A stretch of 63,615 nucleotides of DNA, the filler included, from Reclinomonas americana ATCC 50394 (taxonomy: Eukaryota), in NCBI GenBank assembly GCA_048213135.1. It is 4 parts of 3 records of this genome, joined end to end, with 100 filler letters (N's around TTAATTAATTAA, not from the genome) between each part and the next. Parts side by side here need not be neighbours in the genome. Positions count along the whole stretch, not along the records: positions 29,337 to 53,885 come from PS015103.1; 3 more parts are not named here. One strand, 5' to 3'. The position numbers and the translations under genes were made by a program. Shown here piece by piece: positions 36,780 through 57,355 of the stretch. The notes under the pieces are model-generated. The model saw nothing but the letters and a program-made list of their open reading frames with translations. It was not told the origin of the DNA and did no database searches. Position 1 is the first letter of the stretch. Each line of letters starts with the position of its first letter.

Positions 36780-39700
36780 TCACTCATCCCTCTCCTCCCG
36801 CTGGAACAGCAGCGTCAACATCGCGCCCGACAAGCGCAGCTTCAGCAAGCAGTCGCAGATCAGGTACAGCACCACCTGCACACAATCAACAGTCAGCATC
36901 CCCCACACCTTCTCCTCTCCTCTCCCCTTCTCCCCCTCACAAACCTCGGTGGAAAAATCGACCACTCGCCACCCCTCGTGCCCGAGCATCCACACCACGC
37001 CAAATGCGTTGCACAGCACGGCAAAGTGCACAAAGAGCGACCACGACGAGGGACGCAGCATGCGGTACACCAGATACAGCGTCACGCTGAGTGCGCCAAA
37101 ACTCATGGCCAGCCATCCGACCTTGAGGCTCATCGTCGGGGCGATCTGTGCACGCAAGAGTGAATGGCGAGTGTGACTCACACAAGTCCACTCTCTCTCT
37201 CTCTCTATCGTACCTCTCCCAGGTAGCCCAGATACGCCATCGTCCACGCGGACACGGTGCCGAGGGCCACCGCACGCATCTGTCACACGTGTTGGAAAAA
37301 GGAGTCGCACATTTGCCTGCTTCTTCTTCTCCTTCCTCTTTCCTTGTTCTCATTCGTCTCTTCATTCTCGCTCCTCTTCGAGGAGGTGGACAAGATGAAG
37401 AAGAAGAAAAAAGAAGGAGGAGAGAAGCAAGAAGAGGAACAAGAAAGTTGACGAGCAGGAGGAGGAGAACAACAAGAGGAACTAGAACGAGGAGAGGAAG
37501 TAGAGTGAGAACAAGGAAAGACGACAAGGAGGAGAAGAAGAAGTAATAAAAGAAGAAGAGAAGCAAGATCCTCCTTCCCCTTNNNNNNNNNNNNNNNNNN
37601 NNAAGTAATAAAAGAAGAAGAGAAGCAAGATCCTCCCTCCGCCTCTCCACTTTCTACTCCACTTCCTACACTTCATCCTTCTTGCTTCTCTTTTTCATCT
37701 TTTACTTCTTCTTCAACTTGTCCCCTTCTCCTTCTATTCCCCCTGTTCCCATTCTTCTTCCTCTCTTCCTTCTCATCCTCTTCCTAATCTTCATCTTTCT
37801 TGCTTCTCTCCTTCTTCTTTTACTTCTTCTTCATCTTGTCCCTCTTCTTCCCTGACCCGGTTCTACTTGGTTCTCTTTACTTCTTTCACTTCTTCATCAT
37901 CTTGTCCACCTCCTCCTCCTTCTCTTCCCCCTTCGTCCGTGTCCCCCATCTTCTGCCTCTCCTCTTTCTAGTCCTCTTTCTTGTTCCCCTTCTTGCATCT
38001 CCGCCTCCTCTTTCTCCTCCTATTTCTTATTCCTCTCCTTGCTTCTCCTCCTTTTCTTGCACCCCTCCTTCTCCCCCACTTCCTCTTCATCCCCCATCCG
38101 CACCTTGTCACCCCTGCTCGCCACCACCTCCGTGGTCAGCGCAAACGCGGTGAGAATACAGGGAAACGCCGTCGAGTACTCGACGTAGCGCGCCACCGAG
38201 TGCGGAAACGCATTCATGTACACGGAGAGGTAGCAAATGGCGGCGGCGGCGCACATGCCCGACAGGCACAGACAGGCCTGCAAGAAGGAGGTGAGTGAGA
38301 TGGTGATGATCGCTCTCTTGTCACTCTGACACCTACGGAAAGGCAACTTCTCATCTTCTTCTCAGCGAAGCGAGAAAAGAGAGACATTGACAGAAAGCGA
38401 GAGCCAGAGAAAGACTCAAAAGAGGTGAGAGGAACTGGCACATATTGCCTGTCTCCCTTGTGCAGCAGCGCGACAACAAAGCCCTCACTCCACCCACTAA
38501 TCATAATTTCTGCATTGCTTCCCAGCCCTTCGCTCTCGCCAGCAGTGCTTCATGGCTCCCCGTTTTCATTCCCTCTCTTGCATTCTCAAACAACATGGCT
38601 TCCCAGTCCTGTGCTCTCGCCAGCAGTGTCTCATGGCTCCCTTTCATTCCCTCTCTCTGTCCTTTGCTCCCAGTCTCTCTTACATTCTCGAACAGCACGG
38701 CTTCCCAGCCCTTCGCTCTTGCCAGCAGTGTTTCATCGCTCCCCGTTCTCATTCCCTCTCTTGCATTCTCAAACAGCACGGCTACTCAGCCCTTTGCTCT
38801 CGCCAGCAGTGTTTCACGGCTCCCTCTCATTCCCCCTCTCTCTCTCAGTCCTCTGCTTCCAGTCTCTCTTGCATTCTGAAACAGCATGGCTTCCCAGCCC
38901 TTCGCTCTCGCCAGCAGTGTTTCACGGCTCCCTCTCATTCCCCCTCTCTCTCTCAGTCCTCTGCTTCCAGTCTCTCTTGCATTCTCAAACAGCATGGCTT
39001 CCCAGTCTCTCTTGCATTCTCAAACAGCACGGCTTCCCAGCCGTTCGCTCTCGCCAGCAGCTTTTCATGGCTCCCTCTCATTCCCTCTCTCATTCCCTCT
39101 CTCAGTCCTCTGCTCCCAGTCTCTCTTGCATTCTCGAACAACATGGCTTCCCAGCTGCAGCCCTTTGCTCTCGCCAGCAGTGTTTCATGGCTCCCCGTTC
39201 TCATTCCCTCTCTTGCATTCTCGAACAGCATGGCTTCCCAGCTCATCGCTCTCAGTGTTTCATGGCTCCCCGTTCTCATTCCCTCTCCCTGTTCTCTGCC
39301 CCCAATCTCTCTTGCATTCTCAAACAGCACGGCTTCCCAGCCCTTTGCTCTCGCCAGTTACCTCTTTCCAGTCTCACTGTCTCTCTGACTCCAGAAGCTT
39401 GAAACAGCAATCTCACCTTTCTTCTTGTTTTCAGCACCAACGAACCCCTTTGATCTCGCTCTCTCCTCTTCACCCTCATTCTCGTACAACACGAAGTCTT
39501 TCACTGCTCCTGTCTCCCACTCTCTCTCTCTCTCTCTCTCCCCAACGTCTTATCCAATGCAATCACTCTCCCCCTTTCCCCTTTCCCCCTCTCCCCNNNN
39601 NNNNNNNNNNNNNNNNNNNNNNNNNNNNNNNNNNNNNNNNNNNNNNNNNNNNNNNNNNNNNNNNNNCTCCCTTCCCCTTTCCCCTTCCCTCCCTCCCCCC

Positions 39701-39930
39701 CTCCCCCCCCCCCCCCTTCTCCCATTCCCCCTTCCACCACTCCTCACCAATCGACGAGCATTCCACGTTCTCTTCGCGGCGGCATTGTAGGCGGGCGGTG
39801 GCGGAGGCCACAGCGCGGCAAACACCAGCAGCATGCTGGCGCCTGTCATGACGGCGAGTCCCGCCAGCTGCGAGCGCTCTTCTGTGCTGGCCAGGGTGAC
39901 AATGGAGCGGAGGTCGTCGACGACTGACAT
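36780..39930 (-). CDS. Divergent type-1 (microbial) rhodopsin, ~239 aa, 5 exons
   Basis: Exons 39930-39748, 38277-38104, 37279-37214, 37145-36945 and 36875-36780. Helix C ARYVEYSTAFPCIL, helix D MAYLGYLGE, helix F VLCNAFGVVWMLGHEG, helix G TEVVLYLICDCLLK with the DxxxK Schiff-base lysine. Confidence 0.8.
38505..39360. repeat. Intronic composite tandem repeat in rhodopsin intron 1
   Basis: ttgcattctcaaacagca.ggcttcccagcccttcgctctcgccagcagtgtttca recurs about 9-10 times. Confidence 0.85.
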
Positions 39931-40180
39931 GTTGCTGTGTGTGTGTGTGTGTGTGTGCGTGAGTAAGAGAGAGAGAGAAGATTCGATGGATGTTCGGATT
40001 GATTGGTTCATTCACATATTCGAAGTGGAGGGAGAGAGGGAGAGGGGAGAGAGAGTGGGTGGAGAGTGAACGTTAGTGCACAGTCAGTACAAGACTCGCC
40101 AGCGGCAGTGACACAAGCGCAAGCGCGCAACTAATAACCTATTGAGAGGTCACGTTTCATGTATATCCATGCGGATGGCG

Positions 40181-40285
<105 letters not shown>

Positions 40286-40689: not shown

Positions 40690-43600
40690 ATGAGCAAAGC
40701 GGAAACGCACGCACGTGAGGGGATCAGCGCCGCTCAAAGGGAGAGGCTCGAAAGAGCATTCATGGAGAACCCGCACCCCGACAAGTGAGTGAGAGCGGGT
40801 AGCTATAGTGCGCATGCTGCGCGCGCGCAGCGTGTGACGTGCACTCTCGCGATCGATCTCGTTGCTCATCTTCCCTGGCGCCGGCTTACAGGGAGGTGTT
40901 GCAACAACTTGCTAACGAGTTGGGGCGCTCCCTCAAGTCGACAACGCTTTGGTTCACGACTCGACGCAAACGGTGATCATGAGATCACCCTTGATGCATT
41001 TTTTTGAAGATTGGTCACTGACGGCACGTGGATCCGCCAGCGGACCACGAAAGGAGGGTGCCCACGACTGGTTCGACGCCGAGCAAAAGAAATGCCTCGA
41101 GCTTTCTTATGCGAAGAATCGTTATCCCACGCGGTGTGTGTGACCGTTGCATGTCCTGCTGTCCTTCCTTCTGACGCTCGTCCCGCTGCAGTGACGAAGT
41201 GCAGAAGTTGGTTGACGAAGTGGGGCGCTCAGAGAAAACTATTCGCACATGGTTCAGCTCTCAACGTTTCCGGTGAGTTGCTCGTCTCTCTCGCTTCACG
41301 ACTTTCAAATATTGCTCACGATATCGGTTCGACATGTCGACAGTGACGGTTGCACGCGTGCCCGCGTGCCCTTTTCCGACGAAGAAATTAAACGATTGGA
41401 GGAGGCGTACCAGCAAAGCGAGTCCGTGCTGAGCGCGTGAGTGTCTGTTCGTGTACATGTTCAATTAGTGTCACTCTCGTTGTTAATAATTACGATTGTA
41501 TCTGGATGTAGGACTCTAAGGAAGGAGCTGAGTGACGAACTGGGTCGCACCGAGCATTCTGTCGGCTCCTGGTACAAGAACAAACGCAAATTGGAACGGT
41601 ACGCTTACATCTCGTTGCCTCTCTTGATCTTCTGCACTGTTGATTTCATCAATGACTATTCAATAGTGCCGGATCCGGAGTAGCTTCATCAGCGGCGTCA
41701 GCGTCGGCGCCGGCGAGCGAGTCGCGTCTTTGGTTGCCGTACTCCGACGAGGAGAAAGAGCGCTTGGAGCGAGTGTTCATCGACAATGACCGCCTTCTCC
41801 CACCCAGGCATGTTCGACAAGTCGCTCTTCCAGCTGTTTTGTGCCACCCTTTTCCACTGACTTCTTTTGTAGTGATGTTCTGCAGAAGCTAGCGGCTGAG
41901 TATAAGCGTACACCGCGTGCCATCCAAAACTGGTACAAACGATTTAGCCGGTGAGTGGACGTCCGTTGCCTTCCTGCTCAGCTTACTGCTTACTAACTCT
42001 GATATCAATTTATAGTGAACAAGCGCTAGCAGCCGCACCATCAGCGCCGCAGTGTGTCTCCGGAAAGTTCACCGCCGACGAAATTGCATTATTGGAAAGG
42101 GTTTTCGTGCGATATCGCCAGTACCCGACAAGGTGACTAATACTGGCCTGCGCCATGGCCAGTCATTCGCGTACCGGTACCAATCCATGCACTGATGCCC
42201 ATCTTTGTTCGAACACAGGCCAGTTGTGCATAGTTTGGCTACGCGGTTTCGACGCACCGTAAGCAGTCTAAAACAATGGTTTACTCGCCGCCGTCACCGG
42301 TATGTAGACGTCTGTACATGTCTCTCATGCACGTGCTTTTTTTGAGCCATGTATGTGTCTGCAGTGCTGCAGCAGGACTTCGATGTCGAACTACAAGCCA
42401 ACGTCAATCGCAACGAAAGCTGCTGCAGCAGGCACTCGTAGACAATCCGAATCCGAACAGGCTTGTACTTTGCTGTACCCGCATTTTATTGTGCATCTTT
42501 TACTCAGCTCACATTTCGGACTCTGCAGGAAAACGGTGCAAAAACTGTCTCAGAAACTGACTGCCGTACCGAGCGAAGTTGAGCGCTGGCTTAAAAAAAA
42601 ATCGGGGTGCCGAACGGTTTGTCTATTGGTTGCGAAATGGCGTGGCTGCTGATTGATCACTGACCGATTGAATTTGAGCAGTGCATGTGATGGGGACGGA
42701 TCGGGATCGGGATCGGGATCGGGAACAGCAGCTGAAGCGCCGTTGGTGTCCGCACGAGCGGCTGAAGCGCCAGCGAAGGAAGCACCAGCAAAGGTACCGG
42801 TGACGAAGAAGCCGTATTCGACATCCGAGCTGGAACAATTGGAGGAGGTGTTTCGTGTTTCCAAGAATCCAAGCGGGTCTGTATGTTTCCTCGATATTCT
42901 CTTAATGCAATCTGCGCTCATCGTCGGCTACGAACACAGCGAGGTGCGGGAGCAATTGGCGAAAAGCATGGATCGGACAAGGCGCGCCATCGACACGTGG
43001 TATGTTCGCAGACGCAAACGGTTTGTCTGGTTATTCGTTTTTTGTCTTTGCTGCTGATTGGTATTGATCACTGATTGCACACGTTGGGCAGTGATCGCGA
43101 CGGACCTGCGCTTGCGCCAGCTGCAGGTGCCCGCAAACTGGTAGGTATACCGTTCACCGAGAGTGAAAAGGAGCAGCTCGAAAAAGTGTTCGTGCACAAC
43201 CCCATGCCAAATAGGTACAGTAATACTGGTTGTCCGCTTACTGTTTCTTATATTTGTACTAATGTCCGGCAACAGTGATGTCCAGCTGCAGCTGGCTCGC
43301 GATATGGAGCGGCCTGTGGATGCGATTAATGGCTGGTTCCTGCGCAGGCGTCTGCGTGATCGGTACTGCTCGTCTCCCTCGCTGTGCTGCTGCTGATTTA
43401 TCACTGATTTCGATTACAGTTTGAATGGTGATGGTGCTGATGGCGCTGGTCCAGCGAACGAGGCGGGTCACAGGAGGCGGCTTACCGAACCGGAAAAGGA
43501 ACGACTTGGAGAGGTGTTCGCCGTCAACCAGTATCCCGACTTGTGCGTCAGCTGTTTGCATTCTTGTTTGTTTTCGTGTCGTCCTCCGTGCTCACGATAA

Positions 43601-44641
43601 TTTCCACTCTTAACTTTACACAGCACGGTCCTAAGGCAACTGGCTGCCGAGTTGGGCCTGCCAGCCAGCCGTCTCCAAAACTGGTTCAAAAAGCGCCGGA
43701 CGTTGCATCTGTGCCGATGCGGAGAATCTCTGCATCCACTATACGGATACCCTGCCTCGCCGAGACGCCGCGAATGCTGTTCCGCGTGCAAATTGCCCGG
43801 CATGGAATATTTGGGTCCCAGTCCATGCCAGTGTCGGAGCGCACGTGCCGATTACGGCAATCTTGGCCAAGATCCCACTTGTTGCATCCAATGCCGGAAG
43901 CGGAGGATGGTACTGCTTCGCCACCCGTATTGCGAGTCCGAGCATCACACTCCAGGGCCTGTATTTCACACACTCGTCCAGAAGTGGGGAGACAGTTGTG
44001 GCGTTTGCAAGGCCTGGGGGACTGGATTTGTGCCGCCGTCCTACGGATCTAAAGAGACTGTAGTCGTGCAGTATCTGCACGAACAGGGCTTTGAGTGGAA
44101 ATCGTGGAACCAGCTTGTGCAAGGCAACGTTTGCTACCGGTATCGCCCCGACCTCTATTTTGAGCTGGAGAACGGCACTGGATGCATTGTCGAGGTTCGG
44201 TGGTAGCGCATCAGAACTGCCCGCGTACGGCGTACAGTTGCTCATAACCTTTGTGCATGCCGAACACAGGTCGATGAGTTCGAACACGACTACACGCACA
44301 ACCCTCTGAAGGCCGGCGCCTATGAACCTGCTTGCGAGGCCTCTCGCATGCTGAACATTTGGTTCACGCTCGGCTGCGCCCCACTTTCTTTTATCAGATT
44401 CAACCCAGATGGGTGCACGCCGGCCGAATACCAAGAGCGTCTGCAGTCACTGGCCGACGTTTTGCGGCACACTCTGGAGAATCAACAGATTGCGGACGAC
44501 GCCGAGGACGACATTGCGAACAGGATTTCGGTTCGAGTCGTTTATATCGGCTACACAGCCGGGCGGGAGCGGGAGTGCGTGGCAGCAGTGGAGGAGGCGC
44601 GACAGATGGCCGATGATCAGCTTTTCGGCGGACGACAGTGA
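40690..44641 (+). CDS. Nine-homeodomain protein fused to EsV-1-7-like Cys-rich repeats and a PD-(D/E)XK/Vsr-like endonuclease (19 exons)
   Basis: Nine units of F/Y-x-x-E-x-x-x-LE-x-x-F...P | ...LA...WF/WY-x-x-RR joined by phase-2 introns. These run into CRCGESLHPLYGYP..CCSACKLPGM and then RYRPDLYFEL..IVE|VDEFEH..CEASRM..FIRFNPD. Stop at 44639-44641. Confidence 0.8.
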
Positions 44642-44827
44642 GTGTCGCCGCGGTATTTCCCCCGCCACGGCCGGCGTCAGTGGCTGGCACATGTACAGAC
44701 AATGATGCGAAGTGAACAATCTGCGTTTGAGTTAACCCAAGTTTCGGATTGCCCTCCCGCAAGGCAAACCAGCAACAACGATTTCATTGCGAGCTGAGGT
44801 GCAAAGACCCAGGAATCTTCTCTTTCT

Positions 44828-55544: not shown

Positions 55545-56502
55545 TCACCAGATGTAGCCCTGCAGAGAGGAGTGAGGAACGGTGACTGTAAAGCGGCAAA
55601 CTCCTCTATATGAACTCACCAGTCCATCCCAGAAATCGCAATAGCTGCTTCGCAGGTGCTGCGCAACCGCCGGCTGCGGCAAATCAAACACCAGCGTCGA
55701 CTGCGTGCTGTCGTCCCACTGCGGCCACACGGGGGTGCCTGGTGCGCGTCCGGCATTCGGCGATCCGCCACGCACAAACGCCGTCCAGTAGGCCGCCATT
55801 TGGTGTGACAGGCGCGAATCGTCCGGCGGGAAGATCAGCGGCGTCGGCACGGCTCCCCACGCACTGTTGAACACGTACGGCAATTCGCCACCGTGGCACG
55901 GGTACCCGTAGCAGAACGCGTAGTCAGGACCCCACGCCTCCGTGCCCCACGGCAGCGAGCGAGAAAAGTAGTAGCGGTAGGCGCCGGCGGGGAAGTAGCG
56001 TGCGGCGGCGCGGTTCGGGCACTCGAACAAAAAGTCAGTGCCGAGATCCGACATCGGCACGCGTGCGTCGGACTCGCTCTCCGTCACCGGGTACTGCGCG
56101 TACACCTTCAGGGCGGAGAGGTGGAACAAGCCGCCGAGCGCTGCCTCGTACTCCCACTTGGCGAGGGGTTTGGTCACCGCGGCGAAGATGAAGGTGCGGC
56201 CCTGCAGGGAGGAGAAGGGGGTAGTTGAGGGAAAGGGACGATAGAAATCGAGAGAGAAAGAGAGATATAGTAAACACAGGGAGAGGACAAACCTCTGAAG
56301 CATTGTTGCCGACAAGCACTGGAATAGTCGGCGCGCCAGCGCACTTGCCATTCATGACCAGCGTGATGGGGTTGTCGCTCAGCTCGGCAGTGGCAATCAG
56401 CGGGCTCCACGCGTACACCGCTGCGTACACCATTATCAGCACCAGGAAATGCATCCAAGATCGAAAGACAGATCGAAAGATAGAGAGAAAGAGAGAGAGT
56501 GT

Positions 56503-56563
<61 letters not shown>

Positions 56564-56703
56564 GACGACGACGACGACGACGACGACGTACGTACGACGA
56601 CGACGACGCGCGCGCGTACGTACGTACGTACGTACGTACGTACGTACGGTACGGACGACGACGACGACGTAGTACGTACGACGNNNNNNNNNNNNNNNNN
56701 NNN

Positions 56704-56772
<69 letters not shown>

Positions 56773-57355
56773 CGCAACACAGCAGTGGCGACACAATGTG
56801 AATGTCGTTGAACTTGAGCTGTGCGGCGAGGATTTCATCGGCAGACTTGCCGCGCAGGCACGCCGTCATGTCGGACGCATCGTCGCAGCCGGCTTTCTGC
56901 ACTCAGCAACACGAAGGGATGAGTATTCAGGGTACATGGGTGCGGTATGGTGAGCAACGCAACGCCGGCAAAGCTCTTGCCCTCCGACACGGCCTGCGTC
57001 ATGGTCTTCATTGGCAGGCTCCACGGATTCGACTCCATGATGGCGCGGTGGAAGAGGCCCTGTGAGACGGGCGAGCAGAGGTGCGCGCTCACCGAGGTGG
57101 CGCCGGCCGATTCGCCCGACAGGGTTACCTGGCAGAGATTGAGAAGGGCGAGTCTTTGCGCAATCATGAAATGCATATATGGGAGGATACCTGGTTCGGA
57201 TCGCCGCCAAACGCCGCAATGTTGCGCTGCACCCACTGCAGTGCCTGCAGCTGGTCGTAGAAGCCGTACTGGCCGCCAAGTTGCTCAGTGGCTGTGGTGT
57301 GGGAGGGTGAGGGAGAGGGAGGGAGGGCGGAAGGGAGAGAGAGAGAGAGAGTGAA

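Follow-up and report, generated by a model that had tools for sequence, protein, structure and literature searches.

In nearly all microbial rhodopsins the retinal chain is held in a sandwich of the residues W86, W182, Y185 and P186 (bacteriorhodopsin numbers are used for equivalent positions). Bacterial rhodopsins with a DTG motif (residues at the D85, T89 and D96 positions) and bacteriorhodopsin mutants lacking D96 are working pumps, in channelrhodopsins Y185 is replaced by Phe and D96 by a residue other than a carboxylate, and fungal opsin-related proteins as well as HSP30/YRO2 of yeast share the fold but have diverged, their retinal pockets being degraded and the helix-G lysine missing. 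For the apusomonad rhodopsins, which are ultraviolet (UV)/blue anion channels, UV absorption has been described to accompany an Ala in place of T89 combined with two Asp counter-ions, and an Ala/Ser swap at this position moves absorption between UV and visible (PMC12557545). In fucoid algal zygotes a 'rhodopsin-like' photoreceptor has been postulated, and the accessible parts of the respective papers contain no gene identification (PMC4261725, PMC3652789). Here we describe a gene at positions 36780-39930, minus strand, of a DNA stretch of 63,615 nucleotides (the whole stretch analysed, called the window) from Reclinomonas americana ATCC 50394 (GenBank assembly GCA_048213135.1). That this locus is a rhodopsin homologue and a real gene is, in our judgement, highly probable. 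We read it as an intact, intron-split nuclear gene for a stand-alone, very divergent type-1 rhodopsin that would probably bind retinal and serve as a slow-cycling, UV/blue-shifted sensor or channel, and we rate the chances of this complete reading as about even.

Gene structure and homology to type-1 rhodopsins

Five open segments splice to a coding sequence of 717 nucleotides plus stop codon, encoding a protein of 239 amino acids with seven hydrophobic segments, in accordance with the five exons and the seven-helix protein of about 239 residues that had been proposed in a first-pass annotation. As also stated there, the gene is invisible as a single open reading frame (ORF); the region 36780-39930 contains no long ORF and no single ORF covers the whole gene. 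All four introns are of the GT...AG type, so that all eight splice-site dinucleotides are canonical, every junction is in phase 0, and the 239 codons are free of stops and frameshifts over the five exons. Exon 1 (39748-39930; residues 1-61) begins with the ATG at 39930-39928, encodes the N-terminal tail, helix A and the basic A-B loop, and ends at the donor GTGAGG. Intron 1 (38278-39747; GC 0.54) measures 1470 nucleotides as assembled and includes a gap of 70 N at 39597-39666. Nested minisatellites at 38517-39154 within this intron (periods of 35, 81, 108, 143 and 183 bases, 86-95% matches) give rise to long plus-strand ORFs that are spurious. Exon 2 (38104-38277; residues 62-119) encodes helices B and C, with the codon for E94 at 38181-38179, and is followed by intron 2 (37280-38103; GC 0.46), of 824 nucleotides as assembled, with a gap of 20 N at 37583-37602. 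A near-identical sequence of about 35 bases is found on both sides of this gap (37550-37640), which looks like an unclosed assembly overlap. Because introns 1 and 2 each hold an assembly gap, their true lengths are uncertain. Exon 3 (37214-37279; residues 120-141) encodes helix D with M133 and G137, the equivalents of M118 and G122, and retention of intron 3 (37146-37213; 68 nucleotides) would shift the frame. Exon 4 (36945-37145; residues 142-208) encodes helices E and F, with the codon for C186 at 37013-37011. Intron 4 (36876-36944; 69 nucleotides) is in frame and without stop codon. Exon 5 (36780-36875; residues 209-239 and the TGA at 36782-36780) encodes helix G, with the codons for D216 and K220 at 36854-36852 and 36842-36840, respectively, and the protein ends 19 residues past K220.

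The source genome is intron-bearing and has a GC content of about 52%. GC content at third codon positions (GC3) was 0.82 over the exons (0.75-0.97 per exon), compared with an intron GC content of 0.46-0.57, and was close to the GC3 of 0.80-0.83 of a tandem gene family in the same window. When scored with the codon table of this family, the proposed coding frame was the best one (-3.85 per codon vs -4.58 and -4.42). An in-frame ATG occurs 81 nucleotides upstream of 39930, and because it sits in a CA microsatellite and has a GC3 of 0.56, compared with 0.75 for exon 1, position 39930 is probably the likelier start and the stretch after the upstream ATG is probably 5' untranslated region. The CA/GT microsatellite occupies 39931-39960, immediately before the ATG, and a perfect (AG)50 microsatellite is located some 250 bases further upstream, at 40186-40285. 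Exon 1 is the least certain exon, because it adds nothing to the rhodopsin profile score reported below; its evidence consists of the ATG, the open frame, a hydrophobic helix, the GC3 and the GT donor.

For comparison, 114 prokaryotic rhodopsin loci were gathered by a helix-C motif pattern, 80 of which had full flanks, and from these 64 full-length ORFs of 210-340 amino acids were kept. Nine haloarchaeal rhodopsins of three motif types were added via the Pfam model, and a hidden Markov model (HMM) was built from the resulting 73 sequences. The spliced protein scored 26.1 bits against this HMM (E = 2.1e-10 for one target), in a co-linear alignment running from helix B to just beyond the helix-G lysine. 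Shuffling within 12-residue blocks, by which the hydrophobic pattern is kept, gave at most 15.9 bits (n = 2000; mean -1.1, standard deviation 3.6), and full shuffles (n = 2000), run on an earlier HMM of the 64 sequences, gave at most 9.8 bits vs 23.3 bits for the protein. Among the six-frame ORFs of at least 100 amino acids from all loci and the window (n = 1072), 124 true rhodopsins reached at least 60 bits and the best other ORF reached 6.8 bits. Alignment with hhalign yielded a probability of 96.4% in global mode (220 columns) and of 95.1% in local mode. Dropping exon 2, 3, 4 or 5 lowered the HMM score to 18.5, 12.0, 10.1 or 17.7 bits, respectively, and reading through intron 4 lowered it to 17.6 bits; without exon 1 the score was 27.0 bits, that is, nothing was lost. 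Only one of 119 permutations of exon order attained the native score, and in this one, too, exons 2-3-4-5 stood in order.

When single exons were searched against Pfam, exon 2 matched Bac_rhodopsin (PF01036) and no other family (14.5 bits, E = 0.025, profile positions 37-92), and a heliorhodopsin family was reported for none of the exons at E ≤ 10. The best match in PDB for the exon 4-5 reading was bacteriorhodopsin 1c3w (residues 128-195, helices E-F, E = 0.11), and from the helix-F glycine to E208 (E204) the alignment with 1c3w is free of gaps. In the spliced form the lysine of helix G lies 24 residues beyond that glycine, a spacing that we count in bacteriorhodopsin as well. Searching PDB with exon 2 alone gave two chance matches only, and no piece of the protein matched NCBIfam. 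We conclude that the protein is a genuine, if only weakly similar, homologue of the type-1 rhodopsins; this homology backs exons 2-5, and exon 1 is backed by gene-structure features only. In one of the haloarchaeal genomes, a fourth Bac_rhodopsin match (contig 82, 139611-140234) scored 33.2 bits, compared with 168-232 bits for the other three, and only 6.8 bits on the 73-sequence HMM.

The loops contain four (A-B), two (C-D) and one (E-F) Lys or Arg residues and the C-terminal tail two, vs two in the N-terminal tail, none in the B-C and D-E loops and one in the F-G loop. By the positive-inside rule, this distribution fits an N-terminus on the outside, the orientation of type-1 rhodopsins. Together with the HMM score and the hhalign probability, the absence of any fused domain bears out the earlier proposal of a divergent type-1 rhodopsin that stands alone. 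In 43 flanking ORFs of at least 50 amino acids on the same strand (31.8-36.8 and 39.9-42.7 kilobases) no cyclase, phosphodiesterase, kinase or bestrophin domain was found, the only domain matches being weak ones to RING (5.7e-05), LSM (8.4e-04) and DUF6128 (6.5e-03).

Residue conservation and comparison with described rhodopsins

The protein was aligned to bacteriorhodopsin by phmmer against PDB entry 1c3w, by the purpose-built HMMs and by hhalign; a MAFFT add-to-alignment run was discarded, since helix F was misplaced in it. In helix C, RYVEYSTAFPCILTA, the three methods agree on E94, A98 and A105 at the D85, T89 and D96 positions and on Y95 in place of W86. Helix F, VLCNAFGVVW, contains C186 (W182), F189 (Y185) and G190 (P186), and helix G, with DCLLK, keeps D216 (D212) and K220 (K216), the latter on the column of the lysine that is invariant in 73/73 references. 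All of these assignments had been made by eye in the first-pass annotation and were reproduced; beyond it, the equivalents of E194 and E204 were found to be kept. Conserved residues in helices B and C are Y77 (Y57), R91 (R82), Y92 (Y83) and P100 (P91), those in helices D to F are M133 (M118), G137 (G122), W152 (W137), S156 (S141) and W193 (W189), and E198 (E194) and E208 (E204) are conserved besides the Asp and Lys of helix G. Further replacements are L66 (T46) and F99 (T90) in helices B and C, A134 (I119), L153 (W138) and F157 (T142) in helices D and E, and L219 (A215) in helix G.

With R91, E94, D216 and Y77, all residues of the counter-ion complex (R82, the D85 carboxylate, D212 and Y57) are present, and on the extracellular side the residues of the proton path known from bacteriorhodopsin (R82, Y57, a D85-like Glu, D212, E194 and E204) are retained, as judged from the alignment. 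What is replaced in the pocket are three of four tryptophans and the Tyr-Pro pair of helix F. W86 is found in 73/73 references, 64 of which had been selected by a pattern that includes it; in the nine collected via Pfam, W86 occurs in 9/9, and D85 and T89 occur in 6/9, the three with a TSA motif being different. Among the pocket changes, W182C and P186G in helix F and I119A are towards smaller residues, and T90F, T142F and A215L in helices C, E and G are towards larger ones. Because these losses and gains of bulk partly compensate each other, the pocket looks re-packed, not decayed.

Compared with bacteriorhodopsin and other haloarchaeal DTD pumps and with the bacterial DTG pumps, the protein shares the equivalents of R82, Y57, Y83, P91, M118, G122, S141, W189, E194, E204, D212 and K216, and bacteriorhodopsin 1c3w is its best sequence match in PDB. 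It differs from D/T/D and D/T/G pumps by its E/A/A motif, in which the proton acceptor is conservatively kept, whereas the T89 partner and the D96 donor are absent. In the pocket, W86Y, T90F, W138L, T142F, W182C, Y185F, P186G and A215L set it apart from bacteriorhodopsin-type pumps, its B-C and E-F loops fall well short of theirs in length, and its gene, unlike theirs, is split by four introns of the spliceosomal type. In having F189 and A105 it resembles channelrhodopsins, whose residues at these positions were described above; unlike channelrhodopsins, it has lost the equivalents of W86 and W182. The Glu at the D85 position is also found in CrChR2 as E123 (PMC12557545). Most channelrhodopsins keep Glu82 and Glu90 (CrChR2 numbering) in helix 2 (PMC8818676), whereas helix B of the present protein (residues 62-83) contains no Asp or Glu at all.

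The apusomonad rhodopsins are, by their description in PMC12557545, likewise stand-alone eukaryotic proteins on a deep branch, and they too have an Ala where T89 would be, along with two carboxylate counter-ions, and lack the helix-2 carboxylates of channelrhodopsins. They differ at the D96 position, which is invariably Gln in that family (motif DXQ or XTQ) and A105 in the present protein. Likeness also exists to haloarchaeal sensory rhodopsins and to the 'sensory' rhodopsins of photosynthetic flagellates (stramenopiles and cryptophytes) as depicted in PMC8017926, which have no D96 carboxylate, keep the counter-ions and are short, stand-alone seven-helix proteins. However, the three haloarchaeal DTY/DTF references keep W86, W182, Y185 and P186, of which the present protein has none, and, unlike for haloarchaeal sensory rhodopsins, a transducer or partner is not evident. 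In contrast to the fungal opsin-related proteins and HSP30/YRO2 with the traits given above, K220 and both counter-ions are kept. The missing heliorhodopsin match of the single exons and the charge distribution, which is that of a protein with its N-terminus outside and not inverted, set the protein apart from heliorhodopsins, and the lack of a fused domain, with a stop 19 codons past the lysine, sets it apart from enzyme rhodopsins and bestrhodopsins.

Identity to the references had a median of 19% and a maximum of 25.6%, the top values (23-26%) being reached with haloarchaeal and bacterial DTG references. In a FastTree phylogeny of the 73 prokaryotic references and the gene model, the model was sister to a clade of the nine haloarchaeal references and those bacterial ones that have DTG, DTN or related motifs (Shimodaira-Hasegawa-like support 0.88), on a branch of 3.4 substitutions per site as compared with a median terminal branch of 0.27. 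This placement is weak, because the branch is long and eukaryotic references (fungal, algal, channel and apusomonad rhodopsins) are absent. A second copy in the window was not detected by tblastn with the model, and Rfam and transfer RNA scans of the window were empty. A literature search, for which subscription journals lay largely outside and supplements were not covered, found no description of a rhodopsin with an E/A/A motif or with this pocket.

Proposed function and alternative explanations

We lean slightly towards the view that the protein binds retinal. Because the lysine, the counter-ions, R82 and Y57 are kept, K220 in helix G would form a Schiff base with all-trans-retinal next to a bacteriorhodopsin-like counter-ion complex of E94, D216, R91 and Y77. 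Once light has isomerised the retinal, the proton of the Schiff base would move to E94 and exit via the release pair E198/E208, outward release being proposed because the E194/E204 pair is kept. The cytoplasmic donor would be absent, with A105 at the D96 position and L66 at the position of its partner T46, and because both are lost, slow reprotonation and a long-lived, deprotonated M-like state are expected, which would suit a photosensor or a gated channel and not an efficient pump. A98 and the lost pocket aromatics (Y95, L153, C186, F189 and G190) would lead to a weakly protonated Schiff base and a UV/blue shift, and by analogy to the apusomonad rhodopsins A98 may lower the Schiff-base pKa. 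The assignment as sensor or channel rather than pump, drawn from these residues, is tentative.

Several observations weigh against a retinal-binding, slow-cycling sensor or channel, or against the frame in which it is proposed. As 64 of the 73 reference sequences were picked by a pattern, their invariance at R82, Y83, D85, W86, T89 and P91 is partly by construction. Among the checks suggested in the first-pass annotation was a comparison of Bac_rhodopsin and heliorhodopsin profiles, and for single exons its outcome is mixed, in that Bac_rhodopsin was the sole family for exon 2 and heliorhodopsin did not appear, while the 14.5 bits of exon 2 are below the gathering threshold of 24.6 for PF01036, and a Pfam search with the exon 4-5 piece gave no Bac_rhodopsin match. 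None of the 73 references lacks W182, Y185 or P186, so that their loss, already pointed out in that annotation, is indeed unusual; all three being replaced here, retinal may therefore no longer fit. Only 9/73 references have both E194 and E204, all of them with DTD, DTG or DTN motifs, and the E198/E208 pair would thereby somewhat favour pumping. In a word-based search with a 189-residue ORF none of 66 candidates reached E ≤ 0.01, and phmmer with the 121-residue reading through exon 4, intron 4 and exon 5 found no real match among 1.84 billion representative proteins; its sole match, a 436-residue tandem-repeat protein aligned in seven short stretches, was judged spurious. Pattern matches in viral contigs (15) and metagenome contigs (157) yielded no confirmed case. 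The missing relatives are weak evidence of uniqueness, because two other ORFs of the window, one of a carboxylesterase and one of the tandem family, were also without scoring relatives in the word-based search; the source lineage seems to be poorly represented in that database.

The loss of W182, Y185 and P186 from positions that are otherwise invariant, together with the replacement of W86 and W138, could also be understood if the protein were an opsin relative with weak or lost retinal binding and a light-independent membrane role, comparable to the fungal opsin-related or HSP30-type proteins, and the very long branch and the absence of relatives that might show constraint point in the same direction. 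However, a protein free of chromophore has no evident need of the Schiff-base lysine, R91, E94, D216, Y77 and the equivalents of M118, G122, S141 and W189, all of which are kept; known relatives that do not bind retinal lack the lysine, and the partial compensation of W182C, P186G and I119A by T90F, T142F and A215L suggests re-packing, for which reasons we consider this explanation unlikely, if serious. The same conserved residues, that is, the carboxylate at the D85 position, R82, D212, Y57 and both release glutamates, a combination of glutamates that is found only in DTD, DTG or DTN references, would be in place in an outward proton pump that works slowly without a donor, in the manner of bacterial DTG rhodopsins and of bacteriorhodopsin mutants lacking D96, and the sister clade in the tree contains DTG-motif proteins. 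Yet the donor (A105) and also the Thr at the T89 position (A98) are absent, the pocket is strongly remodelled, and the tree placement suffers from the long branch and the missing eukaryotic references; such a pump appears improbable to us.

Doubts of another kind concern the gene itself. Exon 1 without homology support, assembly gaps inside introns 1 and 2 and a protein that is a singleton would be compatible with an unexpressed relic, a recently inactivated gene or an artefact of the gene model, whereas 239 codons in five exons without stops or frameshifts, eight canonical splice-site dinucleotides, a GC3 per exon like that of other genes in the window, the order of exons 2-5 on the family profile and the bacteriorhodopsin-like spacing obtained once intron 4 is removed speak for an intact gene, and we regard a relic or artefact as quite improbable. 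Chance resemblance of an unrelated seven-helix membrane protein could account for weak matches of single exons (E = 0.025-0.11), all the more as the composition of transmembrane segments raises such scores (by a bias term of 7-12 bits). It could hardly account for a whole-protein score above 2000/2000 block shuffles and above every non-rhodopsin ORF tested, for a lysine, both counter-ions, R82 and Y57 that all fall on their columns, or for a score that is obtained only with the exon order 2-3-4-5, and we give it very little credence.

Returning to the proposed retinal-binding sensor or channel, a more far-reaching version would make the protein the founding member of a deep, unsampled clade of eukaryotic type-1 rhodopsins with a rebuilt pocket, which might act as a receptor for UV or blue light whose Schiff base is deprotonated in the dark, or might hold a retinal analogue in an unfamiliar geometry. 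If the host were a photosynthetic stramenopile, for which the borderline EsV-1-7 motif described below is the sole hint, the protein would be a candidate for the photoreceptor postulated in fucoid zygotes. This version is speculative, and we think it rather unlikely.

Genomic surroundings and significance

Other features of the window include WD40-repeat exons at 1798-2975 (plus strand), an exon with an EF-hand pair at 10133-10552 (plus strand) and two exons of the carboxylesterase family at 55548-57284 (minus strand). The tandem family mentioned above consists of six intronless orphan gene copies on the minus strand between 12981 and 29023 (12981-14186, 15433-16560, 19301-20443, 21825-22985, 24836-25966 and 27905-29023), which encode proteins of about 400 amino acids, share 68-85% identity with the first copy and have a GC3 of about 0.8; no relatives of this family were found in Pfam, NCBIfam, PDB profiles, viral contigs or the database searched. 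At 40800-44700 on the plus strand, a run of ORFs was noticed, each of which ends in a motif like the third helix of homeodomains (W-F/Y-x-R-R-R/K), with Pfam Homeodomain matches at 42653-43054 and 43601-44203. These ORFs are followed by an EsV-1-7 cysteine motif (24.6 bits, threshold 25) and by a C-terminal stretch that, by eye, is endonuclease-like. The run may represent a gene with several homeoboxes or else an element that is repeated. An affinity of the source to brown algae was considered and dropped as unproven; the Ectocarpus proteome is public, and no close relative of the tandem-family or carboxylesterase ORF came up.

As the rhodopsin-like gene was missed by ORF-based and by exon-wise Pfam annotation, intron-rich genomes of protists can hide photoreceptors. 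A protein that drops all four residues of the retinal sandwich and keeps the lysine, the counter-ions and the release glutamates would probe what a retinal pocket truly needs. Should retinal not be bound, the protein would be a rare opsin relative that retains the lysine in another use. If it does bind retinal, optogenetic tools of short wavelength or slow cycling could be developed from it in a new way, and it would add a eukaryotic lineage to the diversity of rhodopsins.

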